Shown here: positions 3,063 through 26,956 of the stretch, one piece after another
Numbering within the stretch: the stretch's first letter is position 1
How the letters are laid out: each line of letters opens with the position of its first letter
Translations under genes and position numbers: made by a program
Assembly (NCBI GenBank): GCA_963730015.1
Contig: CAVSPZ010000002.1
Coordinates: 138,142 to 202,141, forward strand
Direction of reading: 5' to 3'
Origin: an uncultured Acidobacteriota bacterium
GTDB lineage: Bacteria; Acidobacteriota; Terriglobia; Terriglobales; Acidobacteriaceae
Length of the DNA: 64,000 bases
The notes under the pieces: generated by a model
The model's database searches: none
What the model saw: only the letters and a program-made list of their open reading frames with translations
Told to the model about the DNA's origin: nothing

Positions 3063-4706
3063 GTGGTGCTCACCGTGGATCCAGCCGACAAGCCCCGCTC
3101 TGAAACGTTTCCAGAGGGAACCCCGAGACGAGAGTGGAAGATTGCCTCACTCGTTCTCGTCGTCGCCTCGGCCGTTCTGGTTATCGCCGTTCTGGTTGCC
3201 AACCTTCAGTCGCCGCGAGTAGCACTGGCGCTGCTGATTTCATTGATCAGTTCCTTGCTTGTCTTTGCCCTCTTGTTGGCCGGCGTTTTCCGCCAGATGC
3301 ACAGGACCGAACGCCAGGCAAGGACTGTCTTTGAAGACAGGGAGCAGGAATTCCATCAGATGGCCGACAACATCCAGGAAATCTTCTGGGTGATCGACGC
3401 CGAGACGAAGAAAGCCACCTTCGTCAATCCGGCATACGAAACCATCACTGGCCGCTCCTGCCAATCCCTGATCGAAGAACCGTCCTCGTATGAAAAGGTC
3501 ATTCATCCGGACGATCGAGATCACGTGCTGGCAAAGCTTCAGCAAGCGGCCCAGACCGGACACTTCGACGAAAGATTTCGTATCCTCAAGCCGGACGGTG
3601 AAGTTCGCTGGGTTTGGGTCCGCGGCTTTCCACGGAAAGACGCTAACGGAAAGATCACTCGACTGGGGGGAACTGCGCTGGATATCACTGCGCTCAAGAG
3701 AGCGGAAGACCAGGTTGCGGCGAATCTTGCCAGGGCGAACTCGGCATGGGCGGAGGCGGAGGCGTTGCGCAAGGCAACGCTTGCCCTGACACAGGATTTG
3801 CACATGGACTGCGTTCTAGACGCGCTCCTCCGGTCTCTGGCTGAGTTGGTTCCGTATACCTGCGCCCGAGTACTCGTCCCCGAAGGTGGTCCCCACTGGC
3901 TGGCGCTGGGAGAAAAAACGTGTCCCGATCTCGCGAAGAAGTCTCCTCGGAGTCCCCTGACATTCGTTGCGGACGAATCCCCCTTTTTTCAACGTATCTG
4001 GTCGGAACGAAAGCGTATCTTGATCGCGGACACGAAACGGGAACAGGGATGGCAGACCTTCAAGGGACATGCGCAATTCCGTTCCTGGCTTGGCGTCCCC
4101 TTGCTGGCCTCTGACGAGTTCCTGGGTTTTCTCTCCGTCGGCCACGTGGAACCGAACCACTTTACTGAGGACCACCTTCGGCGCGCCGAGCTACTTTCCA
4201 TCCCGGCCGCTGCAGCCATTCAAAACGCACGCCTGTACTCTACCGCTGAGATCTATGGTTCGGAGCTGGAAAAGCGATTAGCGGACCTGCAAAACGCCGA
4301 ACGCGCGCTCAACCAATCAGAGGAATGTCGCCGGGTTTCCGAGGAGAAATTTCAGAAAATCTTCCACTCGAGCCCGGTTGCCTTTTCCATCACGACGCTG
4401 GAGGAAGGCCGCTTCTTGGAAGTCAACGCTGCATTTGAGGCACGTTATGGGTACTCCCGCCAGGAGGTCCTCGGACGCACAGTGCACGAACTAAGGATGT
4501 GGGACGATCCTGCCGACCGGAGATTACTGGTGACGCAGCTTCAGCGAGGAGGTCCGATTCGAAATGTAATTACCCGCCTTCGAGCAAAAACGGGCGAAAT
4601 CAAGCTTACGGCCTATTCTGCCGACCGGATTGAATTCGACGGGCAAAGGTGCATACTGGCTGTTTCGGAAGATGTGGTGACCCATGATCAAAAGTCCACA
4701 AATTAG
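3063..4706 (+). CDS. membrane-anchored PAS-GAF-PAS sensor protein without recognisable output domain
   Basis: Two N-terminal hydrophobic helices. PAS (FWVIDAETKKATFVNPAYETITG...DITALKRAE), a GAF-like middle part (SWLGVPLLASDEFLGFLSVGH) and a second PAS (FLEVNAAFEARYGYSRQEVLGRTVHEL). The ORF stops right after the second PAS. Confidence 0.75.
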   Translation: MVLTVDPADKPRSETFPEGTPRREWKIASLVLVVASAVLVIAVLVANLQSPRVALALLISLISSLLVFALLLAGVFRQMHRTERQARTVFEDREQEFHQMADNIQEIFWVIDAETKKATFVNPAYETITGRSCQSLIEEPSSYEKVIHPDDRDHVLAKLQQAAQTGHFDERFRILKPDGEVRWVWVRGFPRKDANGKITRLGGTALDITALKRAEDQVAANLARANSAWAEAEALRKATLALTQDLHMDCVLDALLRSLAELVPYTCARVLVPEGGPHWLALGEKTCPDLAKKSPRSPLTFVADESPFFQRIWSERKRILIADTKREQGWQTFKGHAQFRSWLGVPLLASDEFLGFLSVGHVEPNHFTEDHLRRAELLSIPAAAAIQNARLYSTAEIYGSELEKRLADLQNAERALNQSEECRRVSEEKFQKIFHSSPVAFSITTLEEGRFLEVNAAFEARYGYSRQEVLGRTVHELRMWDDPADRRLLVTQLQRGGPIRNVITRLRAKTGEIKLTAYSADRIEFDGQRCILAVSEDVVTHDQKSTN

Positions 4707-13380: not shown

Positions 13381-14730
13381 CTAGTTGTCGCGAATGAACT
13401 GTCTCAGTGCAGTTAGAAAGTCGCGGTTGTCACTCTTCCGATGACTTTTCGAGGCCGGGGTGTCAGTGCTTGCGACGAGTTTGATCCCCGTCTCGTGACG
13501 AACGGGATAGGAGAAACGACCTTCTCCGTCGCTTGCACCCACCGACGAACACGCCTGAGAAACCAGGATAATTAGGCATATCTTGTCGCGTTGTTCCCCC
13601 ATCGCGATTTGACGGAACGTGACAATCTCTCGCTCATACTCCAAATACTCGGTCAACACGTCGCGAGCGACCTTCAGGCGGTTTTCGAGATTCTTACCAT
13701 CGCCAATACCGACGATTTCTCGCTGGTCGGTTACACCGATAATGAGAACACCGCCCGTTGTATTCGCAAAACTTGCGACATCTTCCGCAAATGTTCTTTT
13801 GGCCTCCCTCCGCGCCGGCTCGTCTTTCACGTGCCAAATGTTGAGTGTCTCCTTGAAGTCCCACATCTGCGGTTCGGTCGTTTTAACCTTGCTCGTCTTT
13901 GTGATGAACGTGCGCCAAAACTCGTCACTCTCATACAGCTCTCGTTGCTCTTTGAACTTCTCAATGTCGATTTTTATATTCCGAAGTGAGTCTCTGATCT
14001 CTAAGAAATAGTCGGCGCACTTGCCATAAACGGCGTGGGAGGTTCTTCTGACCACCGTTCGCTCGGGTGGAATGATCTCCGTATCAGGAGGTGTGGTTTC
14101 GGGGTCCATACTCTCGAAAATCTCGAACCCGACTTCATGGTAGGTGTCCCAATAGACAAAGCGCCCTCTCTCACGAACACCAAGGGCAATTTCTGCGAGT
14201 GCACGACGGGTTTCTTTCTCCCATCCGCCGGTTTCTTCGCCAACCCATTTCATATCCCGGTCGGCCATCCTGGTAGAACCCCAGACACGGTAGGTAAAGA
14301 GCATGCACGGCGCCATTGCATGGCGCTTTTCAAGCAACCCGACATATTTGTGCAAAGCATCGATCTCGGCCTGGTGTTTATCGGCAAACTCTCTCAGGCT
14401 CAGGAGCAGAACCTCATACGATTCCGTCTCTCTACTTTTCAACTTCGCGGAATCGGTTTTCAAAACCTGCGCCGCGTTTAGCGCCTCTCCGGTCATGGCC
14501 AGCAGTTCGTCAACATTGGTTTCGTTCTCGAAAATCCACCAATGGATCTCGTCTTGACCGACATGGACTCCGAACTCGGTCCACTCCGTCGTCCAGCCAA
14601 ACTCCTTCTTGACTTGACTAAACCGTGCTTGATCCATGGCGTGAGCCGCTTTTAGGATCGCGCCGTGTACTTCTCCGAGCCTTAATGTGGCGTCAGAGAA
14701 CAGGACATCGCGCATGCGGTCATCGAGCAT
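13381..14730 (-). CDS. AlbA_2/Schlafen-type domain protein with large unknown N-terminal domain
   Basis: The C-terminal WDFKETL...EDVASFANTTGGVLIIGVTDQREIVGI matches the AlbA_2 (divergent AAA / Schlafen-like) signature. The first ~290 aa are unrecognisable. Confidence 0.65.
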   Translation of the reverse strand: MLDDRMRDVLFSDATLRLGEVHGAILKAAHAMDQARFSQVKKEFGWTTEWTEFGVHVGQDEIHWWIFENETNVDELLAMTGEALNAAQVLKTDSAKLKSRETESYEVLLLSLREFADKHQAEIDALHKYVGLLEKRHAMAPCMLFTYRVWGSTRMADRDMKWVGEETGGWEKETRRALAEIALGVRERGRFVYWDTYHEVGFEIFESMDPETTPPDTEIIPPERTVVRRTSHAVYGKCADYFLEIRDSLRNIKIDIEKFKEQRELYESDEFWRTFITKTSKVKTTEPQMWDFKETLNIWHVKDEPARREAKRTFAEDVASFANTTGGVLIIGVTDQREIVGIGDGKNLENRLKVARDVLTEYLEYEREIVTFRQIAMGEQRDKICLIILVSQACSSVGASDGEGRFSYPVRHETGIKLVASTDTPASKSHRKSDNRDFLTALRQFIRDN

Positions 14731-14866: not shown

Positions 14867-15232
14867 TCAACATGCATCGATGTAGAAAACCAATTCCCCG
14901 TGTTTTCCGATGGAACTCCGCCATTGTTTGGACAAGCTCCGCATATTGTCGATCAAAACGATCAGGTCATTCCCGTTAACAGCTACCCCTTGTTCCCCCA
15001 TACTGTCTTTGAAACTGGCCGCACTGAAGCGCTCGTCTGCTTCCATGTAGTCCAGAACCTTTCTGCCGTTTTCAAGCCAGACGACCTGTTTGTCCCCGTA
15101 TTCGTGCTGGTCGCTCGCCGTACCCACCCTGGCGGCAAGGTCGTGGAGCAGCACAATCAACTTCTCCGGTTCGATGAAGCAGGACGAGTGTGCACTCCAT
15201 ATTTCTTTCACTGCCCGAAAGCTTTGGCTCAT
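14867..15232 (-). CDS. hypothetical protein, last gene of the E2/E1 cassette
   Basis: 121 aa from the ATG that overlaps the ThiF-like stop (ATGA). No recognisable motif. Confidence 0.45.
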   Translation of the reverse strand: MSQSFRAVKEIWSAHSSCFIEPEKLIVLLHDLAARVGTASDQHEYGDKQVVWLENGRKVLDYMEADERFSAASFKDSMGEQGVAVNGNDLIVLIDNMRSLSKQWRSSIGKHGELVFYIDAC

Positions 15233-16077
15233 TGCCTGACCACCTTCCTTCTCTTGCGTTTGGGTAATTCGTAATCTGCCGAGTGGGTCCTCATCCGCTG
15301 CCATAGGGCCGGGTCGACAGCGAGTGAGGTTGTGCGCCCCGTTCGCAGATTCACGAACCCGCCGTGGTACGAGAGCCGCCCATATCGGAATAGCCGCGCC
15401 AGCATTGCCAGCGCCTGGTAGGCGAGTGTCTGGTTCACGAATGGCTCTTGCCGCGCCAACGCTTCCAACGCGCTGCACGGTGGAAGTCTGTCTTTTTTGT
15501 CGAGCATTGGGTTGATGAGCTCAGGGAAAAGTTCCGAAGCTGTCGGCAAGCGCGAGTCTCGCGCTTTGTTTCGCTGGTTTTCGGGCTGGCCCAACACGAA
15601 CTGACCACTATCGGCATTGTTGCCCAGATCCAGCCAATAGTGGCAGTTCCAGTAGGTTTGCGTGCGCGTCATCGCGTTCCGGGCGGCACGAGAATCAACG
15701 CAGCCGATCAGGATGTCGGTCTCATGTCCCCAGTTCTCATCGACGAAGTGTGGCACTCCTTTCCAGCCAAGGCCCCAAAACAGATTGATCCGGGTGGCGA
15801 GTACTGTCGCCTTGTGCAGTCCGATCTCACTCTCACTGAAAGGTTGGCGGACGCAGTTGGTGCGGGAGATCCGGTCGCCGTCGACCAAGGTCACGTCCAG
15901 TCGATGCGGATGTCCTAAAGCGACGATGGCTTGGTGCAGATACGGCAATCCGGCCGCTATGGCGCTTCCCGTCCCACCACAACCGACTACGGTGATCAGA
16001 ACGTTCTTTTGCAGCAGTGCGCCAGGAATCTTGTGCTCAGTCTTCGTGGCGGTTGTCGTTTCGATAGCTGTGGTCAT
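15229..16077 (-). CDS. ThiF/E1-like adenylyltransferase (PRTRC-type)
   Basis: VVGCGGTGS Rossmann loop, LVDGDRISRTNCVRQPF adenylation motif and ILIGCVDSRAAR. The overall pattern is as in PRTRC-system ThiF family proteins. Confidence 0.85.
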   Translation of the reverse strand: MTTAIETTTATKTEHKIPGALLQKNVLITVVGCGGTGSAIAAGLPYLHQAIVALGHPHRLDVTLVDGDRISRTNCVRQPFSESEIGLHKATVLATRINLFWGLGWKGVPHFVDENWGHETDILIGCVDSRAARNAMTRTQTYWNCHYWLDLGNNADSGQFVLGQPENQRNKARDSRLPTASELFPELINPMLDKKDRLPPCSALEALARQEPFVNQTLAYQALAMLARLFRYGRLSYHGGFVNLRTGRTTSLAVDPALWQRMRTHSADYELPKRKRRKVVRQ

Positions 16078-16798
16078 CGTTCCTCACGAATTCCGCGAGT
16101 GTCTGCGGCAGCTTCACCAGGTATTTCTCTGGAAACGCTTTTTGTCCCGCTAGGGATTGCCACATCGCTAGGAAGCCGCCGCGAAACCGAACGTGTTTGC
16201 GAACGCCTGAGGCGTGCGTGAATTCGCTCTGGAAGAACGACTCCTCCCACAAGTCAACGGCAGTGACCGACTTCTCCTGCGGAATCTTCATGCTCCCAGT
16301 GCAACACACGCCGTTGTCGTAGCAGTTCCAGTACGGCGCCATGCAAAGTTGTGTTGCGGCCCTAGGCCGTTCGTTCTTAGCAAGAGCTCGAACCCACAAG
16401 TGAGATCCGCACGCCTTGAGCAGCAAGGGCGGGTGGGGATAGCGCTTGCCATTCATGCCCTCCAAGGCAAGGTCGTTGCCCCGGTCGCTGAAGAACATCG
16501 TCCGTTCGCAGGCTGGGGTCCACCACACGATCATTTCCGCCGTGCGCACCAGCACGCGCGCCGGCAAAATCTCGGCTGGAACCGACCTTCCAAGACCGGC
16601 CATCAGGTCGATCAGCATCTGCGGCGTCATCAACTGGCCTTCCGCCAGTCGCGCTACGTCGCCGTCATGGATCACTTCATGGAGAGTTACAAAAGGATGG
16701 CGATACGGGTAGCCGTCATAGCTGCTCTTCCCGTACACGAGCAGTGCCCGGCTCAACCGGAAGTCCTGACTTGATCCGATGTTCACGGAGATATTCAT
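16037..16798 (-). CDS. E2/UBC-like protein (Prok-E2_B / PRTRC protein B-like)
   Basis: LSRALLVYGKSSYDGYPYRHPFVTLHEV, MAPYWNCYDNGVCCTGSMKIP and FFQSEFTH are motifs I associate with PRTRC protein B. This is from memory, not searched. Start set at MNISVN. Confidence 0.6.
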   Translation of the reverse strand: MNISVNIGSSQDFRLSRALLVYGKSSYDGYPYRHPFVTLHEVIHDGDVARLAEGQLMTPQMLIDLMAGLGRSVPAEILPARVLVRTAEMIVWWTPACERTMFFSDRGNDLALEGMNGKRYPHPPLLLKACGSHLWVRALAKNERPRAATQLCMAPYWNCYDNGVCCTGSMKIPQEKSVTAVDLWEESFFQSEFTHASGVRKHVRFRGGFLAMWQSLAGQKAFPEKYLVKLPQTLAEFVRNDDHSYRNDNRHED

Positions 16799-17819
16799 CG
16801 TAGAGATCCCTGACGAGTTCAACGATCTTGGCAGCGGAGGCCAACGACCGAAGCATCGCGCTGGCGTGATCGAAGACGCGTCGCATTTCTTCATCCAGCT
16901 CTTTCACCGGCCTGTTGAGGTGAATGGGAAGCGCCACATTCGGCTGGCAAGGGCCGTTTTCGCCCATGTGTTGCGCCTCTTCATCAAAGCAGGCGTTAAT
17001 TGCATCACCCTCGTACCAGGTGATCAGACATCCGGGCCGGGAATAGTCAGCATCCGAGAGCCACGTGTCGATGCCTGGTACGTCCTTCTCACTGATCTGG
17101 CCGGGCCACGCATGCTCGTGCCCTTGGCCATGAGCATCCATCTCAAGCAGGTGGCGGATCAGCTCGCGGGCCACGCTTGTGTACACCCGGATCTCCTCAA
17201 GCAAGCTTCTGGCTCTCCTGTATTTGAGCGTCTTCGAGTGCCTCTTGATACAGACCGGGATTTCCATATCCACTTTGCGATAGGTCGATGCTTCCAGTTC
17301 CTCGTCGCTCAGATCCTCCATCCACATCTCGGCGTGCTCCTGGGCGTCGAGGTAGTCGTACACGCGCATCCATTTGTACAGGTTGGTGGTGAGGACCTCG
17401 TAGAAAGCGACCGGCAGAAGATTATGCTCGGCTTCAAGGCGTGCGAGTGTCGCGCCAATTGGAATGGAAGCGGCAGCCTCGTAGTCGCCGACCAGATACA
17501 GATGATCAGCCATTCCCTCTCTATCGGCTTCAACCTGATTTCGCTCTTGCTCCGTCAGCTCGAAGAGACTGTCCGTAATTCGCAGGTCGCCAACCCAGAC
17601 TTTCTTAACATCAGCGGCGCGATTCTGAGAGCAAAACCTCCTAAAACCGCGTTCGACAAAGTCCACCGCGCTACCCGACCAGTCATTGGAGCGGCAAATT
17701 CCCAGCCGCAACAGGCTCATTCCCAAAACCGCAGCAGGCCCTTCATCCCACCTCGTGCAGTAGCGCCATCGAATTCCCTTGAGCCTGGGGAACGTAACGT
17801 CTAGCGGCAGTCCGATCAC
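16716..17819 (-). CDS. hypothetical 367-aa protein of the E2/E1 cassette (possibly PRTRC protein F-like)
   Basis: A GTG start overlaps the stop of the 88-aa ORF (GTGA). Acidic and helical. Contains HEHAWPGQISEKD. No confident domain call. Confidence 0.5.
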   Translation of the reverse strand: MIGLPLDVTFPRLKGIRWRYCTRWDEGPAAVLGMSLLRLGICRSNDWSGSAVDFVERGFRRFCSQNRAADVKKVWVGDLRITDSLFELTEQERNQVEADREGMADHLYLVGDYEAAASIPIGATLARLEAEHNLLPVAFYEVLTTNLYKWMRVYDYLDAQEHAEMWMEDLSDEELEASTYRKVDMEIPVCIKRHSKTLKYRRARSLLEEIRVYTSVARELIRHLLEMDAHGQGHEHAWPGQISEKDVPGIDTWLSDADYSRPGCLITWYEGDAINACFDEEAQHMGENGPCQPNVALPIHLNRPVKELDEEMRRVFDHASAMLRSLASAAKIVELVRDLYDEYLREHRIKSGLPVEPGTARVREEQL

Positions 17820-18082
17820 ACGAGCGGTGGAATGACCACGCCGCTGGGCGGTAAGTATCGATCTCCGAGTTCGGCTCCGTCCTGAGCGTATTTGAGCGAG
17901 TCGAACGCCTTGCCTAGAATTTCCCCCACTTCGAATGCTTCTGGACATTGCTTCAATTGCTCCACGATGGGATCGTTCGTATTGGCGCGGCCATGCGTAG
18001 CTTCTGCCAACGCTCGCAGCACCCGCTTCGCATCTTCATCGATGGTTCGGCAGGCTGCGGCAGCTAGTATCCTGTGCTTCAT
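17816..18082 (-). CDS. hypothetical 88-aa protein, first gene of the E2/E1 cassette
   Basis: ORF coupled to the next gene by a GTGA overlap. Predicted helical. No C-terminal Gly-Gly. Confidence 0.4.
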   Translation of the reverse strand: MKHRILAAAACRTIDEDAKRVLRALAEATHGRANTNDPIVEQLKQCPEAFEVGEILGKAFDSLKYAQDGAELGDRYLPPSGVVIPPLV

Positions 18083-18273
18083 GGAAATCGCCTCTTATGA
18101 CGTTTGATTGACCGTGGAATTGTGGCCCTTGTGTAAGACAGTACGCCTCCATCCACGTTCGGCTGTCGATGGACTCACGAAGCTCGATGTCGGCAGTTAC
18201 GTTCCCGAGTCTGTGATATTTGCGCTCTGGGCAGGCTGTTGGGTATGGGCTACAATTGCCGCAGAGGAACCGT

Positions 18274-18480
18274 ATGATGACTGACCCAGCCTCCGCCATC
18301 AAACGTCAAGTTCACCAATTGGTTGATCTGCAAATCGAAACGCTGCGACAACCGTCGTGTTTGACTACTTCGGATCTGCTTGACTATCGCGTGCGTTCCG
18401 AGAAAATCGCCGGGTTGTACAAAGAGTTGGACCAGACACGAAGAACCAGCTTCAAGGGCCAATTGCGCAGAGCGTCTTAG
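18274..18480 (+). CDS. small conserved hypothetical protein (paralog of 6371..6577)
   Basis: MMTDPASAIKRQVHQLVDLQIETLRQPS... is colinear with the 6371 ORF. GAGGAA precedes the ATG. Confidence 0.5.
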   Translation: MMTDPASAIKRQVHQLVDLQIETLRQPSCLTTSDLLDYRVRSEKIAGLYKELDQTRRTSFKGQLRRAS

Positions 18481-19865: not shown

Positions 19866-21112
19866 GGTTGCCATTCTGCTGTCCAAGTTGGGTTACCAGG
19901 AAAGCGGGATTTGCTCGGCGATGTGAGCGAGTTGGGGCGGGGGTTGAAAGGGTTGATCGATCCAGGAGAACAGATCGCGATAGACGAACAGTTGCTGGCG
20001 CAGCAGAGCGGCGAGATTGGACAGGCTCCAACCGAAGCGGGCACGCAGTTGCAGGTACTTGAGCAGGAGCATGGCAATCAGCGCGGTCCAGACCTGAATC
20101 TGCAGCGCATTGGCGCTGATGCCAACGAAAGTTTTGATGCGGAGGTTTTGTTTGAGCGCCTTGAAAAACAATTCGATCTGCCAGCGCTGACGGTAGATAG
20201 CGGCGACAGTGGAGGCGGCAAAGCGGCGATGATTGGTGAGAAACACCAGGGTGCGTTGCTGCGCGTCGTCCCAGACCTCGATGCGGCGCAGGAACAGATC
20301 GCGCTCGCCGCTGCGGGCCAACTTGTACAGAAAGATGATCTCATCGTGCTGGACGGGGCCGCGCTCAGGCACGGGGCGGCGTTCCACAACACCGTAATCG
20401 GCGTTGTCTTTCATGCGGGTGACGAAGTAGACATCGTCGGCGTCGAGCGCAGAGAACCAGGCATAGTCGGTATAGCCACGGTCGAAGACCACGATGGCGC
20501 CGGGATCGAAGCGCAGCGTGCGGGCCACGCGGCTCTCATGCACGCGGCCTTCGGTGACGAGGGCAAAACTGGGCAGCAGCCCTTGATGATCGAGCAGCAG
20601 ATGCAGCTTCACAGCGCCCTTGGTGCGCCGGTACTGCGCCCAGTCGAAGACGCTGGCGCAGAGTTCGATCAGGGTGGCGTCCAGGCTCAGCAGTTTGTTC
20701 TTGAAGCGGAAACCATGCGGACCGGAAGCTTCGCGGCAGCGACCCAGCAGTTGATAGAACACGGCGCGGTACAACTGCCATGGCCGGTGCTCGTTGGCAT
20801 AGGCCAAGGTGGAGCGCTTGGGCGCATCGGGCAATCCCAAGTGCCGCAACTTGCCTTCGCTGGCGGCCAGTCCGCCGCAAATCTCGCGCAAGGACTGCGC
20901 CCGCCCCAGGTGACAGAACAACATGGCCACGAACTGTCCCCAGCAACTGAACCCGCGAGCGTGGCGCTCGGCCCGGTGCTCGGAAACGGCCTGTTCAAAC
21001 TCTGGCCGGGAAAACAACTGCAACATCTGGCTGAAAATGCTGGATACTCGTATCACGGCGGTGGTGGCCCTCCCTACGATTCACGTCTCGCAACGCAAAC
21101 CGTAGCAGAGTT
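19866..21112 (-). mobile_element. IS4 family insertion sequence (ends approximate)
   Basis: Single DDE transposase ORF. Weak terminal inverted similarity (GGTTGCCATTCTGCTGTCC near 19866 versus CCGTAGCAGAGTTCTACC near 21095). Confidence 0.7.
19893..21056 (-). CDS. IS4 family DDE transposase
   Basis: SLDAT, VFDRGY and YRQRWQIELFFKALK (Y-2-R-3-E-6-K signature). The N-terminal FSQMLQLFSRPEFEQAV domain is typical of the IS4Sa-like group. Confidence 0.9.
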   Translation of the reverse strand: MIRVSSIFSQMLQLFSRPEFEQAVSEHRAERHARGFSCWGQFVAMLFCHLGRAQSLREICGGLAASEGKLRHLGLPDAPKRSTLAYANEHRPWQLYRAVFYQLLGRCREASGPHGFRFKNKLLSLDATLIELCASVFDWAQYRRTKGAVKLHLLLDHQGLLPSFALVTEGRVHESRVARTLRFDPGAIVVFDRGYTDYAWFSALDADDVYFVTRMKDNADYGVVERRPVPERGPVQHDEIIFLYKLARSGERDLFLRRIEVWDDAQQRTLVFLTNHRRFAASTVAAIYRQRWQIELFFKALKQNLRIKTFVGISANALQIQVWTALIAMLLLKYLQLRARFGWSLSNLAALLRQQLFVYRDLFSWIDQPFQPPPQLAHIAEQIPLSW

Positions 21113-22306
21113 CTACCCCCGCCGCTCAAAACCTAATTTGGACAAGAGTGACATGCACCCAAACAGAAATGATCTCGGGATTCTGTCAGAGAGAAGCCTG
21201 GACGTCGATATTTCTTCAAGTCGCTGCAGACATCTCGAATGAAACTGCGTCCCATTATCGCTCAACTCGCCTGCATCCAGCTTCGCACGCAAAGCGAGAA
21301 GGGCTGCCGATACCTCACTTTCGAGAAGAGGACGTTCCTCAATATCAAGATACTTCGGCCGCAGAATCTCCCGGAGATACTCAGAACGCTGCTCTAAGGC
21401 CGTCTTCACGACATCGTCTGGGAGCAGCGCCCGTTTCATCTTACTCTCCAGTCTTTTTCCCGCGGCTTGGGCGGGATGCAGCATTTGGTCAACCGTGTTT
21501 CGGAGCCAGGCGACTAGTTCCTCCCGGCGAATCTTCTTTTCATTTGGCGCTTTCCGGAACTTTGCTGTTGCTGCATCCCACGCCTTTCGTACAAGCTTCG
21601 CGTATAACTCTTCTAGCTGATCAGACGCAACCAGATACCCAAGACTGTTGATAGCCCGATGGAGACGCTGAAGATTGCGATGCTTCTCGGAATCCAAGTC
21701 ATGAGCTATCTGCCAGAATGTCTCTTGTACCCAGAAGGCGACATCGTGGTTGTTGGGAGAACGAACGCTTGCCAGTTTCTCACACAGCTTAGTCGCAAGC
21801 TGTCGAAGTTCATCCGCAGCTTTGATTCGTGCCTCGCAGTTTCGGACAAGGCTCAATGGCTCAAGATCTTTGTTTATTGGCCGTGCAGTTACGATTCGAA
21901 AACAACACGCTTCCTGGCAGCGGTCATTCGCGAGCGACTTCTCCACAATGCACTTGCCAACACCTTTACTGTCACGGGTGGGTTCGGCTTCCGTGAGTTT
22001 TGCAATTGACCACAACTGTTCAAGCTCACTTCCCTTGACTTGAATAAACTCGACTTGCAGTCCACAACCTGATTGCATTTCCAAAAGCAACATCACGTCA
22101 TCGTGAGTTTCGCACCAGATTTCCTTAATTGTGGAATCGACCAAAGCGTCGATGCACAGACCTGCCACGATGTGATCTTGGAAACCCAGACCCCGGCGTG
22201 CAACTTCTCCACCTTGTTCCAACGGTTCCAGATCAAATATTGATTGCGGACGCGGCAATGTTTCTGGTGCTTGATCAGACATAGCTAAGTTGTCCGTTTC
22301 CAACAC
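21113..22306 (-). CDS. DUF4297/Cap4-like dsDNA nuclease domain protein
   Basis: The N-terminal GGEVARRGLGFQDHIVA...IWCETHDDVML...VEFIQVKG fits the DUF4297 PD-(D/E)xK pattern. Long helical C-terminal part. The stop abuts the IS4 end. Visibly AT-richer than its surroundings. Confidence 0.6.
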   Translation of the reverse strand: MLETDNLAMSDQAPETLPRPQSIFDLEPLEQGGEVARRGLGFQDHIVAGLCIDALVDSTIKEIWCETHDDVMLLLEMQSGCGLQVEFIQVKGSELEQLWSIAKLTEAEPTRDSKGVGKCIVEKSLANDRCQEACCFRIVTARPINKDLEPLSLVRNCEARIKAADELRQLATKLCEKLASVRSPNNHDVAFWVQETFWQIAHDLDSEKHRNLQRLHRAINSLGYLVASDQLEELYAKLVRKAWDAATAKFRKAPNEKKIRREELVAWLRNTVDQMLHPAQAAGKRLESKMKRALLPDDVVKTALEQRSEYLREILRPKYLDIEERPLLESEVSAALLALRAKLDAGELSDNGTQFHSRCLQRLEEISTSRLLSDRIPRSFLFGCMSLLSKLGFERRG

Positions 22307-22576
22307 CTTCTAGGTTTCGGCGACACTGTACCATACTTCCTCGTTGGCTATTGACGAATTCGCGGAATAATGCCACAGTGGTAGCTGAGTACTAGCAATG
22401 ATGCGCAAACCCCATACCGATTGCTTCCCGACACCGGCCACGTTTACGTGGCAAGGAGCGGGGGAAGGTACGTTCATGTAACGGGGGCGATCCATAGCGC
22501 GTAGTTTTTCTGAGCCTCCGATACAAATCGGGGGCTTTTGGTTTTTATGGCGCATTTTAGGGTTGCGCAGATAGGA

Positions 22577-22651
22577 GGCGGCGTCGTCTAACGGCCAGGA
22601 TGCGGCCCTTTCAAGGCTGAGATGGGAGTTCGATTCTCCTCGCTGCTACCA
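22577..22651 (+). tRNA. tRNA-Glu(UUC)
   Basis: Manual cloverleaf. Acceptor GGCGGCG/CGCTGCT, D-arm GTCT..GGAT as in Glu tRNAs, anticodon stem CGGCC/GGCTG, loop CTTTCAA, T-loop TTCGATT, CCA encoded. Confidence 0.8.
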
Positions 22652-22848
22652 AACCTATGAGTACACAAACGATTGAACTCGAAGGCTTTGAGATCGAGCT
22701 TGCATCGGACCTTTACTGCGGTCACGGCGGGGATCATCGGGAATTGGTTGATCGTGCGCGTACGGATCGGAGGAGACTTGGCCACAACGTCGATGAATCG
22801 GCCGTTTTGTGTGTACGGTGCATGAAAGCAATACCGCTGAAAGCGTGA

Positions 22849-22922
22849 TGCCGGGTCGTCTAGTGGCAGGACCCTGGACTTTGAATCCGGGTACGGGCGT
22901 TCGAATCGCTCCCCGGCAGCCA
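22849..22922 (+). tRNA. tRNA-Gln(UUG)
   Basis: U1-A72 and G73 (Gln identity). Anticodon stem CTGGA/TCCGG, loop CTTTGAA, T-loop TTCGAAT, CCA encoded. Confidence 0.85.
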
Positions 22923-22941
22923 GTTCTTTGACAATCGAAAT

Positions 22942-23012
22942 TCCCTCCTCGTCCAATGGCAGGACGCTGCGCTCTGAACGCGGAAATCGTGGTTCAAGTC
23001 CACGGGAGGGAG
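22942..23012 (+). tRNA. tRNA-Gln(CUG)
   Basis: Acceptor TCCCTCC/GGAGGGA, G73, loop CTCTGAA, T-loop TTCAAGT. Followed by only CC before the next tRNA. Confidence 0.8.
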
Positions 23013-23014
23013 CC

Positions 23015-23088
23015 GGAGCTATGGTCTATCGGCAGGATGGCTGACTGTCTATCAGCAGGGACGGGTTCAATTCCCGTTAGCTCCGCCA
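23015..23088 (+). tRNA. tRNA-Asp(GUC), U at position 37
   Basis: Acceptor GGAGCTA/TAGCTCC, G73, CCA. Anticodon stem GCTGA/TCAGC. Loop CTGTCTA has a pyrimidine at position 37. Confidence 0.8.
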
Positions 23089-23097
23089 AAAGTTTGC

Positions 23098-23172
23098 GGG
23101 AGATTCGTCCAGCGGCTAGGACACTGGCCTCCAGATCCAGTTACGAGGGTTCGAGTCCTTCATCTCCCGCCA
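23098..23172 (+). tRNA. tRNA-Trp(CCA), irregular anticodon arm
   Basis: Acceptor GGGAGAT/ATCTCCC, G73, CCA. Loop CTCCAGA with a C31-U39 mismatch; the alternative is a 5-bp stem ACTGG/CCAGT with a 9-nt loop. Confidence 0.6.
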
Positions 23173-23174
23173 GA

Positions 23175-23249
23175 GCGAGCATGGTATCGCGGCTGGTGCC
23201 TCGGGCCTCCAACCCGATGACGCGAGTTCAACTCTCGCTGCTCGCTCCA
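23175..23249 (+). tRNA. tRNA-Gly(UCC), C at position 33
   Basis: Acceptor GCGAGCA/TGCTCGC, U73, CCA. Perfect anticodon stem TCGGG/CCCGA. Loop CCTCCAA. Confidence 0.7.
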
Positions 23250-23250
23250 A

Positions 23251-23326
23251 GCGGAAGTCGTCTAGTGGCCAAGACGCGACGTTGCCAACGTCGAGAGCGC
23301 GGGTTCGAGTCCCGCCTTCCGCTCCA
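23251..23326 (+). tRNA. tRNA-Gly(GCC)
   Basis: Acceptor GCGGAAG/CTTCCGC, U73, CCA. Stem CGACG/CGTCG, loop TTGCCAA, T-loop TTCGAGT. Fully canonical. Confidence 0.85.
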
Positions 23327-23345
23327 AGTTAGTAAGCATGTTCGA

Positions 23346-23421
23346 GGCGGTGTAGCCAAGACAGCAAGGCATCTGCCTGCAAAGCAGACAAGCGGGAGTG
23401 CAATTCTCCCCACCGCCTCCA
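23346..23421 (+). tRNA. tRNA-Cys(GCA), atypical D- and T-loops
   Basis: Acceptor GGCGGTG/CACCGCC, U73, CCA. Stem TCTGC/GCAGA, loop CTGCAAA. The D-loop lacks GG and the T-loop is TGCAATT. Confidence 0.7.
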
Positions 23422-23442
23422 GGTTGGCGTAAAGAAGTTTGT

Positions 23443-23514
23443 GCTGGTGTAGCTCAGTGGGAAGAGCTCGGGCCTCGTAAGTCCGTGATCGGCGTTCGAA
23501 TCGCCGCGCCAGCT
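23443..23514 (+). tRNA. tRNA-Thr(CGU)
   Basis: Acceptor GCTGGTG/CGCCAGC. D-arm GCTC-AGTGGGAA-GAGC. Loop CTCGTAA, T-loop TTCGAAT. Followed by CC and then the next tRNA. Confidence 0.85.
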
Positions 23515-23516
23515 CC

Positions 23517-23591
23517 GCTGGTATAGCTCAACGGGAAGAGCAGGCGCACGGTAAGCGCCCGACCGCAGTTCGAGGCTGCGTGCCAGCTCCA
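23517..23591 (+). tRNA. tRNA-Thr(GGU), C at position 33
   Basis: Acceptor GCTGGTA/TGCCAGC, CCA. Perfect stem GGCGC/GCGCC. Loop ACGGTAA. Confidence 0.7.
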
Positions 23592-23598
23592 CAAGTTT

Positions 23599-23674
23599 GC
23601 TGCTGTGGCCGACATACAAAGGCACCTGCCTTGTAAGCAGGTCGATGCTGGTGGGAATCCAGCCAGCAGCTCCA
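23599..23674 (+). tRNA. tRNA-Thr(UGU), atypical D- and T-loops
   Basis: Acceptor GCTGCTG/CAGCAGC, CCA. Stem CCTGC/GCAGG, loop CTTGTAA. The D-loop GACATACAAA lacks GG and the T-loop is TGGGAAT. Confidence 0.65.
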
Positions 23675-23682
23675 AATTCGAT

Positions 23683-23758
23683 GGCGGGATTGGCCGAATG
23701 GCTTAGGCGCTGGATTGTGGCTCCAGTTACGAGAGTTCGATTCTCTCATCTCGCCCCA
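23683..23758 (+). tRNA. tRNA-His(GUG) with encoded G-1
   Basis: An extra 5' G opposite C73. Stem CTGGA/TCCAG, loop TTGTGGC, T-loop TTCGATT, CCA encoded. Confidence 0.85.
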
Positions 23759-23761
23759 ACT

Positions 23762-23835
23762 GGGCGGTTCGTATAAGGGGATTACCCACGGCCTGCAACC
23801 GTGAAATGCGAGTTCGAGTCTCGCACCGTCCACCA
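23762..23835 (+). tRNA. tRNA-Ala(UGC), C at position 33
   Basis: Acceptor GGGCGGT/ACCGTCC gives the G3-U70 Ala identity pair. A73, CCA. Perfect stem CACGG/CCGTG. Loop CCTGCAA. Confidence 0.75.
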
Positions 23836-23841
23836 AAGTTT

Positions 23842-23915
23842 GGCTCGGGAACTCGACGGCAGAGTGCTGGTCTGAAAAGCCAGTGGATACGGTTCAATTC
23901 CGTGCCGAGCCACCA
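23842..23915 (+). tRNA. tRNA-Phe(GAA)
   Basis: Acceptor GGCTCGG/CCGAGCC, A73, CCA. Loop CTGAAAA, T-loop TTCAATT. G instead of U at position 8. Confidence 0.75.
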
Positions 23916-23999
23916 GATCGGGGAGTGTCCTCACTTGGTTGAAGGCGCTGGGAATAGGCTGATCGATGGCGAGTTGGAAGGATGCAGAGGGGAACTGAA

Positions 24000-24290
24000 A
24001 TGCTAGACCCTGAAAGTGAACAAATCCGAGAAGTGTACGCACGGTTCGGTTTGGCAATTTATAGCGCCCAGTGCTTGGAACGGGAACTGGCAATGCTTCT
24101 CGCGGCCTCCGGAACTCCAGAGTACTTCACTGCATGGGACTACGATGACCGCCTAGCCGGCAATTTTGATTCTACGGTTGGTGCGCTCGTATCAATGTTC
24201 GCCGGAATCGCCGGTCCTTCGGACAAACCATTGCTAGCGGAACTTGAAAAGGCAGTTAAGCCTCAGCGATCACCCAAAACCGGCCAGTGA
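24000..24290 (+). pseudogene. hypothetical gene with its 3' end replaced by the IS21 terminus
   Basis: The ORF (MLDPESEQIREVYARFG...) runs into the IS21 left end at about 24260. The last ~10 codons are IS sequence. Confidence 0.35.
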
Positions 24291-24360
24291 TTATCACCTG
24301 AAAACCGGCCAACGAGAGTAGCGTCCGGGACATTGAATCCCGCGGAGGCTTGTAGGCTCC

Positions 24361-26031
24361 GTGGGCATGGCCAATGTCTTGAACGAAGAGAAGAAACAAC
24401 AAGTCTTAGCTCTGGGACGGCTGGGCTGGTCGCTGCGGCGCATCCAGCAAGCGACCCATGTCCGTCGGGAAACCGCCAGCGCTTATCTGAAAGCGGCCGG
24501 GATTGCAGTGCGTCTGCCCAGTGGTTGGGGGCGGGGCGAACCAAAACCGGCCAAGGAAGTGATCACCGACTCCGGTGCGGCAAAATCGGCCATTCCGGTG
24601 ATTCCCGATCCCCTCGACCCTAACTGCAACCCCAACCCCAAAAACCTTTCTAATAAGGGAAAAGCAAGAGCAACTTCAAAACCGGCCAACGAGAACGAGG
24701 TGATCACCGACTCTGCCGCGGTCCCCGGCGCCAGTGCCTGCGAGCCATACCGGGAAGCCATCGACTTGGGGATCAGCCGCGGCCGCAATGCCATGGCGAT
24801 CTGGCAGGATTTGGTTTCCGAGTACGGATTCGCCACCAGCTACCAAAGCGTGCAACGCTTCGTGCGGAAGCGGCGCGGAACGCAAACCCCCGAAGCCCGC
24901 GTCGTGATTGTCACCGCGTCCGGCCAGGAGGCGCAAGTCGATTACGGCACCGGCCCCATGGTGCGCGATCCCGAGAGCCGCAAGTATCGGCGCACCCGGC
25001 TGTTCGTGATGACGCTGGGCTGCAGCCGCAAGTCGGTTCGTCTGCTAACCTTCCGCTCCAGTTCGCGCATCTGGGCCGAACTGCACGAACGCGCCTTTCG
25101 CCGGCTGGGCGGAGCCACCCGCATCGTCGTGCTCGACAATCTGCGCGAGGGCGTGCTTGTCCCCGACATTTACGATCCCGCTCTCAATCCTCTCTATCGC
25201 GACGTGCTCGCGCACTACGGCGCAGTCGCCATGCCGTGCCGGATCCAAGATCCGGATCGCAAAGGCAAAGTCGAATCCGGCGTCGGTCATGCGCAGAAGA
25301 CACCGCTGAAAGGCTTGCGCTTCGAGACTCTGGAAGAAGCCCAAGCCTACCTCGATCACTGGGAACAACGCTGGGCCGACACGCGCATCCACGGCACCAC
25401 CAAACGGCAGGTCGCCGCCATGTTTGCGGAAGAGAAACCCACGTTGCTGCCACTGCCGCTGGAACCCTTTCGTTACTACCAGTACGGTGAGCGCATCGTG
25501 CATCTGGATGGTTGCGTCGAGGTCGAGGCCGCCTACTACGGCGCACCGCCAGGCTGGATCGGGCGCGTGCTGCGCGTGCAATGGGATGAGCTGTACGTTC
25601 GTCTGCTCGATCCTAAAACCGGGCAACTGCTGCGCGAACACGTGCGCCAGAAGCGCGGTTGGTATCGCATTAAAGAAGATGACCACCCCAAGCGAACACC
25701 ACTGCGTACCTCCCAACTGCTGTGGCGAGCCGGTCGTGCTGGGTCGCACATCGGTGCGCTCTGCGATGCCATCCACCACCAGCAAGGCGAGGTCGGTGTG
25801 CGCCGCATTCTCGGCGTTCTCTCCCTAGCCAAGAAGTACGGCACCGCGGCGGTCGATGAAGCCTGCGCCGCTGCGCTCGACATGGGAGTGCAGGAATACC
25901 GCTTCGTGCGTCGCTATCTGGAACGCTGCCCACAAGCCCCGCTGAGTTTGCAGCAAGTCGATCCTCTGATCCGCGAGCTGGTGCAATACCGCGACTTCAT
26001 CAACTACAGAACTAAGGAGATAGAAGAATGA
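24361..26031 (+). CDS. istA: IS21 family transposase IstA
   Basis: N-terminal HTH (LGWSLRRIQQATHVRRETASAYL). DDE core (QVDYG, VLDN, KGKVESGV). Typical IstA C-terminus. Confidence 0.9.
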   Translation: MGMANVLNEEKKQQVLALGRLGWSLRRIQQATHVRRETASAYLKAAGIAVRLPSGWGRGEPKPAKEVITDSGAAKSAIPVIPDPLDPNCNPNPKNLSNKGKARATSKPANENEVITDSAAVPGASACEPYREAIDLGISRGRNAMAIWQDLVSEYGFATSYQSVQRFVRKRRGTQTPEARVVIVTASGQEAQVDYGTGPMVRDPESRKYRRTRLFVMTLGCSRKSVRLLTFRSSSRIWAELHERAFRRLGGATRIVVLDNLREGVLVPDIYDPALNPLYRDVLAHYGAVAMPCRIQDPDRKGKVESGVGHAQKTPLKGLRFETLEEAQAYLDHWEQRWADTRIHGTTKRQVAAMFAEEKPTLLPLPLEPFRYYQYGERIVHLDGCVEVEAAYYGAPPGWIGRVLRVQWDELYVRLLDPKTGQLLREHVRQKRGWYRIKEDDHPKRTPLRTSQLLWRAGRAGSHIGALCDAIHHQQGEVGVRRILGVLSLAKKYGTAAVDEACAAALDMGVQEYRFVRRYLERCPQAPLSLQQVDPLIRELVQYRDFINYRTKEIEE

Positions 26032-26783
26032 ATCTGATCGAACTCGATCGTGCGCTCAAACAACTTCGCCTGGGCGGAATGGCCGCCGTGCTGGAGACCC
26101 GCCTGCGCCAGGCCCAGGCCGAACCGCTCGCCCCCATCGACCTGCTGTCGTGCCTGGTCTCCGACGAACTCGCCTTGCGTGGAGAACGCCTGCTGGAGCG
26201 GCGGAAAAAGCAAGCTCAGTTCCGCGACTCCCAGAAGACTCTCGACAACTTCGACTTCGCTTTCAACAAGAAGATGAATCGCGGCCTGGTCTTCGATCTC
26301 TCCACCGGCACCTTCATCTCGCGCCACGAAGATGCCCTGTTTCTCGGCCCACCCGGCACCGGCAAGAGTCACCTCGCACAAGCCATCGGCCAAGCCGCCA
26401 TCCAACAGGGATACCGCGTGCTCTATCGCGAGACCCACGCCTTGCTCGATGATCTCGCCGAAGCCACGCTCGACGGCACCCGCAAAGAGCACATGGAGTT
26501 CTTGGTGACCGTACCCTTGCTGATCATCGACGATCTCGGCATGCGCAAGCTGCCGCTCACCGCCGCTGAAGAACTGCTGGAAATCATCATGCGCCGCTAC
26601 GAGCGCGCCAGCACCATGCTGACCTCGAATCGCCCGGTGGAAGACTGGGGCAAACTGTTGGGCGATGCGGCCGCCGTGAGCGCCATGCTCGACCGCTTAC
26701 TGCATCACGGCCACGTGCTCAAGTGTGGCCCGCGGAGCTGGCGCACCAAAACCGACTTGCCACCACAGGAGGCGGCAGGGTAG
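26028..26783 (+). CDS. istB: IS21 helper ATPase IstB
   Basis: Walker A GPPGTGKSHLA and Walker B LLIIDDLG. The ATGA overlaps the istA stop. Confidence 0.9.
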   Translation: MNLIELDRALKQLRLGGMAAVLETRLRQAQAEPLAPIDLLSCLVSDELALRGERLLERRKKQAQFRDSQKTLDNFDFAFNKKMNRGLVFDLSTGTFISRHEDALFLGPPGTGKSHLAQAIGQAAIQQGYRVLYRETHALLDDLAEATLDGTRKEHMEFLVTVPLLIIDDLGMRKLPLTAAEELLEIIMRRYERASTMLTSNRPVEDWGKLLGDAAAVSAMLDRLLHHGHVLKCGPRSWRTKTDLPPQEAAG

Positions 26784-26857
26784 AACATTCTCAGTCCCGA
26801 ACGGCCAATCCCGTTGGCCGGTTTTGAAGTGATAACCGTTGGCCGCTTTTGAAGTGA

Positions 26858-26956
26858 TCACTGAGGCGACGGGAAAGCTCTCGCATAATCGAATAAGGCA
26901 GGCGCACCGCTGGAGACAACCAAGGTCTTTAGAAATCTACGACGCGTGTCTGCCAT
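26858..26956 (-). pseudogene. 5' fragment of a Tat-signal protein gene cut by the IS21 right end
   Basis: MADTRRRFLKTLVVSSGAP is a twin-arginine signal peptide. The reading frame runs into the IS21 terminus after about 30 codons. Confidence 0.35.

Follow-up and report, generated by a model that had tools for sequence, protein, structure and literature searches.

Organization of the tRNA gene block

The window analysed here, that is, the whole 64,000-nucleotide (nt) stretch of contig CAVSPZ010000002.1 (positions 138,142–202,141 of the forward strand, assembly GCA_963730015.1) from an uncultured bacterium of the Acidobacteriaceae, carries a block of 14 tRNA genes on its plus strand (22577–23915; 1.34 kb). 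The initial annotation, made from the letters alone, had described 14 plus-strand cloverleaves in about 1.3 kb, and this description was borne out by three approaches. ARAGORN called 13 of the 14 genes (22577–23835) and missed tRNA-Phe, while the Rfam tRNA model RF00005 at its gathering threshold also called 13 and missed tRNA-Thr-GGU. With permissive filters, RF00005 recovered 14 of 14 at 45.6–66.6 bits against a gathering score of 29 (E-values of 4e-8 to 7e-14), so that all of them lie above the gathering score. A position-by-position cloverleaf parse further revealed 7 of 7 pairs in the acceptor stem and 5 of 5 pairs in the T-stem of every gene. The 14 tRNA genes of the window are real and intact.

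Each gene was recovered by ARAGORN, Rfam and the parse unless stated otherwise. The block begins with tRNA-Glu-UUC (22577–22651), which has the loop CUUUCAA with U33 in this copy and an encoded CCA end. Two glutamine genes follow, tRNA-Gln-UUG (22849–22922) and tRNA-Gln-CUG (22942–23014), both with U1-A72 and G73; the 3' end of the latter, CC, abuts G1 of tRNA-Asp-GUC (23015–23088), whose loop CUGUCUA contains U37. Next are tRNA-Trp-CCA (23098–23172) with a C31-U39 mismatch, G37 and G73, tRNA-Gly-UCC (23175–23249) with the loop CCUCCAA, C33 and U73, tRNA-Gly-GCC (23251–23326) with U73, and tRNA-Cys-GCA (23346–23421) with U73 and the T-loop UGCAAUU. Among the three threonine genes, tRNA-Thr-CGU (23443–23516) ends in CC directly before G1 of tRNA-Thr-GGU (23517–23591; Rfam with permissive filters), which has the loop ACGGUAA with A32 and C33, and tRNA-Thr-UGU (23599–23674) has the T-loop UGGGAAU and a 5-nt variable loop and lacks G18-G19. 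The block closes with tRNA-His-GUG (23683–23758; encoded G-1 and C73), tRNA-Ala-UGC (23762–23835; loop CCUGCAA, C33 and G3-U70), and tRNA-Phe-GAA (23842–23915; G8; Rfam and parse). CCA is encoded in 12 of the 14 genes, the exceptions being Gln-CUG and Thr-CGU, which end in CC.

The parse reproduced the identity elements that had been reported as intact in the Gln, His, Ala, Gly, Cys, and Trp genes as well as all the loop anomalies listed, namely C33 in Gly-UCC, Thr-GGU, and Ala-UGC, U37 in Asp, C31-U39 and G37 in Trp, and G8 in Phe. According to PMC2275089 and PMC7812866, U33 and a purine at position 37 are near-universal in tRNAs, and several loops of this block and of its relatives depart from one or the other. 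A nuclease-resistant backup set, decoys, and a decaying relic had been offered as three possible readings of these departures.

The block as a fragment of a widespread array family

A single metagenome scan was conducted with a pattern built around the loops and T-loops of Trp, Gly-UCC, and Gly-GCC, in which positions 32 and 33 of Gly-UCC were left free. The scan revealed 34 loci (the prefix L below numbers these and loci from other searches), of which 33 were arrays in the same gene order as the window with near-identical spacing. Complete arrays (L032, L042, and L045) consisted of 30–31 tRNA genes. Their first part, module 1, reads Asn, Met, Ile-UAU, Val-UAC, Ile-GAU, Lys-CUU, Lys-UUU, Arg-UCU, Arg-ACG, Arg-CCU, and Arg-CCG; the middle is the block of the window (Glu, Gln-UUG, Gln-CUG, Asp, Trp, Gly-UCC, Gly-GCC, Cys, Thr-CGU, Thr-GGU, Thr-UGU, His, Ala, and Phe); and the 3' part after Phe consists of Pro followed by Leu, Tyr, Ser, Ser, and Leu. 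Spacing was kept to the nucleotide across homologues between Gln-CUG and Asp (0), Thr-CGU and Thr-GGU (0), Trp and Gly (2), and the two Gly genes (1), and the gap between Glu and Gln was 195–197 nt. The interval between Arg-CCG and Glu carried 0.2–5.6 kb of unrelated protein genes among the copies and can thus be regarded as a variable cargo slot.

The closest named relative was L072 from a Terriglobales metagenome-assembled genome (MAG; GCA_049511255.1), which is 88–91% identical over positions 22344–24257 of the window. In L072, tRNA-Phe is followed by a 281-codon gene, rtcB, and tRNA-Pro. All proteins of the family with a named source belonged to Terriglobales or 'Candidatus Acidoferrales', an assignment that rests on named MAG proteins together with L072.

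These comparisons show that the window block is the central Glu-to-Phe fragment of an L-array family of about 31 genes found in soil metagenomes and Terriglobales MAGs. Through a rearrangement associated with the insertion sequences (IS) IS21 and IS4, it has lost module 1 (Asn to Arg-CCG) on one side, and the rest of the 281-codon gene, rtcB, tRNA-Pro, and further tRNA genes on the other. The block had been described as an array of 14 genes; it is not a self-contained set but represents a truncated 14 of about 31 genes of a widespread family. Under the definition of Tran et al., the 14 genes in 1.34 kb have the density of a tRNA array unit (at least 2 tRNA genes per kb) and not the number (at least 20); since the complete homologues hold 30–31 genes, the window can be considered a fragment of a qualifying unit. 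The non-periodic order common to the 33 metagenome loci and L072 also corresponds to the common origin by which L-arrays are recognized.

The flanks vary among copies, with IS4, IS21, IS110, and defence genes located around the arrays, and the family is probably transferable between genomes. In a related genome, module 1 (Asn to Arg-CCG) was found alone on a 2.75-Mb contig (ERZ25039491 contig_8844; L059 819–1753, minus strand), approximately 7 kb from an IS21 copy, with a KAP NTPase gene on one side and a metallo-beta-lactamase/Apyc1-like gene on the other; the array has therefore been split in that lineage. Approximately 170 kb around the IS21 copies of related genomes contained no housekeeping tRNA gene, only array module 1.

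A search for homologous arrays in phages and plasmids, as the initial annotation had proposed, found none in the collections used. Comparison against PLSDB and INPHARED by blastn with 'distant' settings gave single-tRNA matches only and no homologous array, and tblastn of the same two databases with two proteins encoded within or beside the array (ORF63 and the 281-residue protein, described below) gave no match. The family pattern was absent from the 2.9 million viral contigs of IMG/VR, and a three-loop pattern (Asp-U37, Trp-G37, and Gly-C33) produced three chance matches in viral contigs, all without tRNAs.

Anticodon-loop traits across the family

The distribution of the unusual bases was determined in 527 family tRNA genes called by ARAGORN. 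C33 could be observed in 100 of the 527, while a purine at position 33 was present in none. C33 was fixed in Ala-UGC (24/24 copies), Val-UAC (9/9), Ile-GAU (9/9), and Ser-UGA (5/5), and it alternated with U33 in Thr-GGU (19 of 26 copies), Glu (12 of 28), Gly-UCC (11 of 35), Asp (5 of 32), and Thr-CGU (4 of 29). In Gly-UCC, C33 was linked to a doubly compensated anticodon stem. The other traits were more uniform: all 32 Asp copies had U37, all 22 Phe copies had G8, all 28 Cys copies had the T-loop UGCAAUU, and all 33 Trp copies had the 31-39 mismatch, while G37 occurred in 5 of 34 Trp copies. The loop variants are thus systematic and not random, as had been suspected. They did not arise in this particular island, and these counts indicate that C33 and U37 are inherited traits of the whole array family and not the product of local decay.

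A different history is indicated for tRNA-Thr-UGU. The allele in the window is identical to that of L072 at 76 of 76 positions, although the flanking DNA is only 88–91% identical, and at least 24 other copies have a canonical allele. Judged from this pattern, the Thr-UGU gene of the window is a replaced, divergent allele.

Part of the signature could also be found beyond the family. A pattern consisting of the Asp loop CUGUCNA followed by Trp, in which C32 and A38 were forced so that it yields no unbiased frequency, recovered eight phage-contig arrays, seven of which had U37. When U37 was fixed, one genome scan returned nine loci, all nine of them inside arrays of 15–28 genes, in MAGs of Terriglobia, Labilithrix, Bacteroidota, and Clostridiales. 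On the basis of these matches, Asp-U37 adjoining Trp is an array signature that recurs across phyla. C33 outside the family was seen in 4 of 16 genes of a Terriglobia array (L013) and in one or two genes each of L005, L018, and L020. The tRNAs of these phage and genome arrays had only 55–75% sequence identity to those of the window.

Selection on the tRNA genes and rates of change

Pairing was evaluated in eight distinct concatenates of the full 14 genes, giving 2240 stem cells. Standard pairs made up 99.2% of the cells, compared to 38–46% when the partners were slid. Seven pairs with double changes were observed against 3.4 ± 1.1 in shuffled data, a number reached by 1 of 500 shuffles, and the 13 cells with double changes were reached by none of the 500. 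Compensatory examples include two pairs in the anticodon stem of Gly-UCC and pairs 3-70 and 6-67 of Cys. The median divergence of the tRNA genes was 0.036, whereas the synonymous divergence (pS) of the embedded gene ORF63 was 0.46. With stems paired and a rate approximately tenfold lower than that of silent sites, the tRNA genes are under selection and do not constitute a pseudogene cluster. A cluster of tRNA pseudogenes was accordingly considered and rejected, since scores lie above the gathering score, stems are intact, identity elements are kept, and divergence is 0.036 against a pS of 0.46. The reading of the tRNA genes as a decaying relic is contradicted by the same intact stems, compensatory changes, and divergence of about 4% against about 46%.

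Rates at single positions were estimated by Fitch parsimony over the 14 tRNAs (1004 columns, 34 loci) on a neighbour-joining tree, which is approximate. The mean was 0.47 changes per site. Position 26 received 1.93 changes, position 38 received 1.50, and position 33 received 1.29, compared to 0.57 at positions 32 and 37 and 0.29–0.55 in the stems. Anticodons had zero changes, a value partly built in as orthologues were defined by anticodon, and three anticodon switches were seen at orthologous slots. The contrast between stem and loop was evident in Asp, in which the stems were invariant in 31 copies while five loop variants occurred, with positions 32, 33, and 38 varying. Position 33 was polymorphic in 5 of 14 tRNAs compared to 115 of 948 other columns (one-sided Fisher p = 0.022). 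What can safely be stated is that position 33 ranks among the most variable sites in this family, where it takes only U or C, although no base of a tRNA ordinarily varies less.

One explanation for this pattern is neutral tolerance or a lineage habit, whereby the array is horizontally spread cargo that adds tRNA copies or matches the codon usage of the element, and C33, U37, and G8 are tolerated peculiarities of the tRNAs themselves, or of how Terriglobales translate and modify their RNAs, without any link to nucleases. Restriction of position 33 to U or C is what transitions under weak constraint would produce, and C33 states were uncorrelated between the tRNAs of one array or with neighbouring genes. 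Published work also offers some support, in that cleavage by gamma-toxin is unchanged by U33C (PMC2275089) and L-arrays mostly add isodecoder redundancy (PMC8421152). Against this, four isoacceptors are fixed for C33 and every Asp copy has U37, although neutral sites are 46% diverged, which indicates constraint and not drift; the bases replaced are, as noted, near-universal elsewhere; Asp-U37 recurs in arrays of unrelated phyla and on phage contigs; and RNA-repair genes recur beside the arrays. Taken together, neutral tolerance or lineage habit is an unlikely explanation.

RNA-repair genes and cargo of intact arrays

Genes for RNA repair were located beside intact arrays by tblastn and Pfam analysis. 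RtcB (Pfam, 428 bits) adjoins the array in L027, L029, L032, L041, L047, L048, and L053 and in the L071–L075 group. Hen1 (Hen1_L, 378 bits) adjoins it in L023, L037, L040, and L054, and a Ro60/TROVE-vWA protein in L026, L042, and L045. The RNA-processing and repair neighbourhood by which L-arrays are characterized is hence present in intact copies; of it, the window retains just the cut gene whose full-length counterpart lies before rtcB in L072. Further cargo genes encode a TrlF-family ATPase (621 bits), a fusion of reverse transcriptase and phosphorylase domains, a TIR protein, an MrfA-like helicase, and giant repeat proteins.

Such neighbours bear on the second of the three early readings, in which the array tRNAs are decoys or sponges that soak up tRNA-targeting RNases or tRNA-binding factors and thereby shield the housekeeping pool, translation not being their main task. 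This role has been raised for the L-array of Anabaena, where only the operonic tRNAs were seen to be cleaved (PMC8421152), and the RtcB, Hen1, and Ro60-like genes that adjoin the arrays would be in keeping with it. A decoy would be expected to mimic the target loop, yet the loops are non-canonical at positions 33 and 37. Moreover, the acceptor identity elements, G-1 of His, G3-U70 of Ala, and the CCA ends are conserved, which fits charging and translation. A decoy function is therefore given a low probability, below that of neutral tolerance.

Conserved elements within and beside the array

Three conserved parts other than tRNA genes could be recognized. The gap between tRNA-Glu and tRNA-Gln holds ORF63, a 63-codon open reading frame (ORF) on the plus strand (22657–22848), the stop codon of which abuts tRNA-Gln. 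The frame was intact in 21 of 22 homologous spacers (195–197 nt). Its pN/pS ratio was 0.19 (pN 0.088, pS 0.46), and variable sites were distributed over the three codon positions as 22, 16, and 53. Residues C21, H27, C52, and C55 were invariant. Homologues were found in at least 598 metagenome clusters at 90% identity, all annotated as hypothetical and one of them named Terriglobales. No match to ORF63 was found in Pfam, NCBIfam, or among Protein Data Bank (PDB) folds, the last using an AlphaFold2 (AF2) model with a predicted local distance difference test (pLDDT) score of 79.

Upstream of tRNA-Glu lies a non-coding leader (22344–22576, plus strand), which contains a -35-like box, TTGACG (22351–22356), and several hairpins. 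A terminator-like hairpin with a T-run (22512–22547) was invariant, and the final hairpin abuts tRNA-Glu. The leader was alignable across 27 arrays with long invariant stretches and was 91% identical to that of L072. Comparison with Rfam assigned it to no family (best E = 2.6). RNAalifold gave a consensus structure of -50 kcal/mol with one covarying pair only, the variation being too sparse to prove the fold. The leader could be an attenuator or a small RNA.

On the 3' side, the first 86 codons of the 281-codon gene remain (24000–24259, plus strand, within the ORF 23982–24290), the gene being cut by IS21; the full-length copy is found in L072 (11378–12223). The protein family comprised 48 clusters, all of which had Terriglobales or Acidoferrales names. 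In the AF2 model (pLDDT 91), a beta domain comes after a helical bundle, the latter containing an invariant motif, R89-N90-x3-H94. IS21 cuts the gene of the window just before this R-N-x3-H motif. The 281-residue protein had no significant match in Pfam, NCBIfam, PADLOC, PDB sequences, or fold searches. Sub-threshold hints pointed to HEPN families and to a tRNA-binding fold, and the best match among PDB sequences, with E = 0.36, was to a tRNA-binding domain; neither of the two resemblances amounts to more than a lead.

In two other arrays, a protein of approximately 295 residues is encoded just before rtcB (oriented coordinates L032 7446–8345 and L053 8001–8882). It has an N-terminal 'FDTS/FDTT' motif reminiscent of PIN domains and no Pfam match. 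These ORFs were considered as homologues of the 281-residue protein and were rejected by tblastn.

Insertion sequences and flanking genes

The block had been placed between a DUF4297 nuclease gene with an IS4 copy on one side and an IS21 copy on the other, and these flanks were confirmed. On the 5' side, an IS4-type transposase gene with DDE_Tnp_1 and DUF4372 domains (19893–21056, minus strand) follows a HamA-like (Hachiman) gene with a Cap4/DUF4297 nuclease domain (21113–22306, minus strand; Pfam Cap4_nuclease 70.9 bits, PADLOC HamA 184.7 bits). The HamA-like gene is divergent from the array and, according to PADLOC, has no HamB helicase partner. It fills the variable cargo slot 5' of tRNA-Glu, and homology with L072 begins only at 22344. 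On the 3' side, an IS21 element (element ends 24260–26867, plus strand; istA 24361–26031, istB 26028–26783) truncates the array unit by its insertion at 24260. The description of the surroundings as an IS-rich pocket with many defence genes is thereby supported. Genes for RtcB, Hen1, or a Ro60-like protein were absent from the window, and no phage genes were seen in the array flanks. A 3421-bp contig identical to the segment of the window that is bounded by both IS elements was present in the assembly GCA_049688875.1.

This architecture raises the possibility that the family is functional while the fragment between IS4 and IS21 is a silent remnant on its way to loss. Only 14 of about 31 genes are left, the 281-codon gene is cut after codon 86, the repair genes and the partner of the HamA-like gene are missing, and module 1 stands alone beside another IS21 copy in a related genome. 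A remnant of this kind is at odds with the perfect acceptor and T stems of all 14 genes, with a leader that is still 91% identical to that of an intact relative, and with the occurrence of the identical 3421-bp segment in a second assembly. It is considered improbable that the fragment is silent.

Comparison with known tRNA arrays and RNA-repair systems

The closest resemblance was found to L-arrays, of which the trn operon of Anabaena sp. PCC 7120 is an example (Santamaria-Gomez et al. 2021, PMC8421152; Puerto-Galan and Vioque 2012). L-arrays carry supernumerary tRNA genes, and their neighbourhood is enriched in rtcB and hen1-pnkP; they adjoin rtcB and are co-regulated with it, and they favour survival under translational stress (PMC8421152). 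Both the Anabaena array and the present family are long, non-periodic, and tightly spaced, the patchy distribution of L-arrays being probable for the present family, and both lie in an RNA-processing and repair neighbourhood, for which a role in translation stress has been proposed. The two differ in phylum, and their DNA is not detectably similar; comparison against PLSDB, in which the Anabaena plasmid should be included, revealed no match to an array. Furthermore, the acidobacterial family is built of modules that are separated by protein genes, and it includes the embedded ORF63 and the leader. Position 33 is not mentioned for the L-arrays of PMC8421152, whereas C33 and U37 are traits of the acidobacterial family, and the window copy is a 14-gene fragment. 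In that survey, Acidobacteriota are listed with accretive arrays only.

Arrays on ICEAfe1 of Acidithiobacillus ferrooxidans and in A. ferrivorans CF27 (Tran et al. 2015, PMC4758250) are likewise Gram-negative chromosomal arrays on mobile DNA; between related strains, synteny is kept apart from tRNA genes that were inserted or deleted, while the flanks are not conserved. They are defined by at least 20 tRNA genes compared to 14 in the window, the likeness is one of description, and PMC4758250 mentions neither Acidobacteria nor an RNA ligase. Long, horizontally spread tRNA arrays are a known kind of element, and Acidobacteriota is a phylum without such arrays in these two surveys (PMC8421152, PMC4758250).

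Phage tRNAs proposed to evade anticodon nucleases (van den Berg et al. 2023, PMC10264068), including those that evade retron and PARIS systems (PMC11555353, PMC11464382), are extra tRNAs with loop bases unlike those of the host and retained anticodons; the array tRNAs likewise keep their anticodons in loops that depart from the near-universal pattern, and Asp-U37 followed by Trp also occurs in phage-contig arrays. In contrast, no phage genes were seen around the present array, neither IMG/VR nor INPHARED contains the family, and positions 33 or 37 are not discussed in PMC10264068.

The RNA-repair operons of Salmonella (rsr-yrlBA-rtcBA) and the Pnkp-Hen1 operons (PMC7790460, PMC4201824) resemble the intact arrays in that RtcB, Hen1, and Ro60/TROVE-vWA proteins stand beside them, and such operons encode tRNA-like RNAs between the repair genes. 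The RNAs of the present family differ in being full tRNAs with anticodons and CCA, and the window is without repair genes. Neither RtcR nor RtcA turned up among the loci that were inspected, and for Y RNA, Rfam gave a sub-threshold YrlA match inside tRNA genes only. The conserved or alternating C33, the universal Asp U37, the Phe G8, the embedded small gene, and the conserved leader were not found in the literature searched.

Proposed role of the array

The explanation that best joins these observations is that the block is a fragment of an L-array which gives the cell a second set of loop-variant tRNAs, a reserve pool against cleavage in the anticodon loop; its chance of being correct is judged to be about even. 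Transcription would proceed from the promoter-like box of the leader and yield a single precursor, out of which the tRNAs would be cut by RNase P and 3' processing, with A76 being added to the two that end in CC. The products would form a second tRNA set with normal anticodons and identity elements and with non-standard bases at loop positions 32, 33, 37, and 38. Most likely, such a reserve pool would stay usable when toxins or defence nucleases cleave the housekeeping tRNAs in the anticodon loop. In intact copies, the pool may act together with the RtcB, Hen1, and Ro60-like repair enzymes. Among the three early readings, the nuclease-resistant backup set appears to fit the evidence best, because anticodons and identity elements are kept, positions 33 and 38 are among the fastest-changing, and repair genes adjoin intact copies.

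Several reported findings are relevant to the proposal. Changes in the loop have been put forward as a means by which phage tRNAs escape anticodon nucleases (PMC10264068). CdiA-CT(EC536), a contact-dependent growth inhibition (CDI) toxin, cuts between C32 and U33 (PMC11724271), and cleavage by gamma-toxin is abolished by any change at position 37 (PMC2275089). C33 may also keep array tRNAs free of loop modifications such as N6-threonylcarbamoyladenosine at position 37 (t6A37). The TsaBCDE enzymes of E. coli are unable to put t6A on a U33C tRNA (PMC8887486), and C33 in Thr-GGU, Ile-GAU, and Thr-CGU is for this reason expected to leave A37 unmodified. The idea of a reserve pool, the idea of a sponge, and the link to rtcB were already proposed for the cyanobacterial L-array (PMC8421152).

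A number of points weigh against a reserve pool. The insensitivity of gamma-toxin to U33C, cited above (PMC2275089), applies here as well, and a nuclease that discriminates U33 from C33 is as yet hypothetical. C33 and U37 may be a habit of these isoacceptors throughout Terriglobales, and the alternation of U and C at position 33 could be near-neutral drift, only transitions having been seen. The excess of polymorphism at position 33 is statistically modest (p = 0.022); the tree behind the parsimony counts is approximate, and recombination would make these counts too high. With rtcB, the 281-codon gene, and half of the array gone, the copy in the window may have ceased to benefit its host. Finally, a transcript from the putative promoter would have to pass the terminator-like hairpin before the first tRNA gene is reached.

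A bolder version can be considered in which the array, the RNA ligase, and the intervening gene form a 'tRNA replacement' module complete in itself. An anticodon-loop RNase, either encoded by the element or provoked by it, would disable tRNAs with U33 and A37, and the element's own C33 and U37 tRNAs would be immune to it. The candidate RNase would be the 281-residue protein, with its R-N-x3-H helical domain and its beta domain faintly like a tRNA-binding fold. Immunity might arise in part from the blocking of t6A and other loop modifications by C33, and translation would continue. Such a module is a long shot; if it were true, the alternation of U33 and C33 would have been left behind by an arms race over the base that is most conserved in tRNA.

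Whichever of these explanations applies to the loop bases, U33 and purine-37 are among the most invariant bases in biology, and the family provides hundreds of independent environmental copies with C33 or a pyrimidine at position 37. It thus includes natural matched alleles, namely Gly-UCC, Thr-GGU, and Glu with U33 or C33 and Asp with U37, which permit tests of nuclease protection, of blocked modification such as t6A, and of the cost at the ribosome. With this family, long tRNA arrays that probably spread horizontally are extended to a phylum dominant in soils, the Acidobacteriota, and their tie to RNA-repair genes is seen once more, while three uncharacterised conserved parts are brought out with it (the 63-residue protein, the leader of approximately 230 nt, and the 281-residue protein). 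The truncated copy of the window is, on its own, of modest importance, and it is the observations at the family level that are worth following.

Other features of the window

Away from the array, an extra tRNA-like gene adjoins an IS110 copy (48236–48309, minus strand) and scored 42.1 bits in Rfam with permissive filters only. As read by ARAGORN, its acceptor, D, and T arms are perfect, whereas the anticodon stem contains an A.C mismatch and the anticodon loop, GGCUCCCA, is 8 nt long. The gene may be a pseudogene, an attachment-site remnant, or a tRNA with a four-base anticodon.

A protein with a Schlafen/AlbA_2 domain (13381–14730, minus strand) adjoins a ThiF-like E1 protein (15229–16077) and a prokaryotic E2 family D protein (16037–16894). 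Bacterial Schlafen nucleases have recently been reported as tRNA-cleaving defence effectors (PMC13056530). A PAS/GAF protein of the window (3063–4706, plus strand) was 69% identical to an ORF upstream of the array in L032, and an unannotated protein (16716–18302, minus strand) was 75% identical to an ORF upstream of the array in L053; these two matches thus belong to a wider neighbourhood common to array-bearing genomes.

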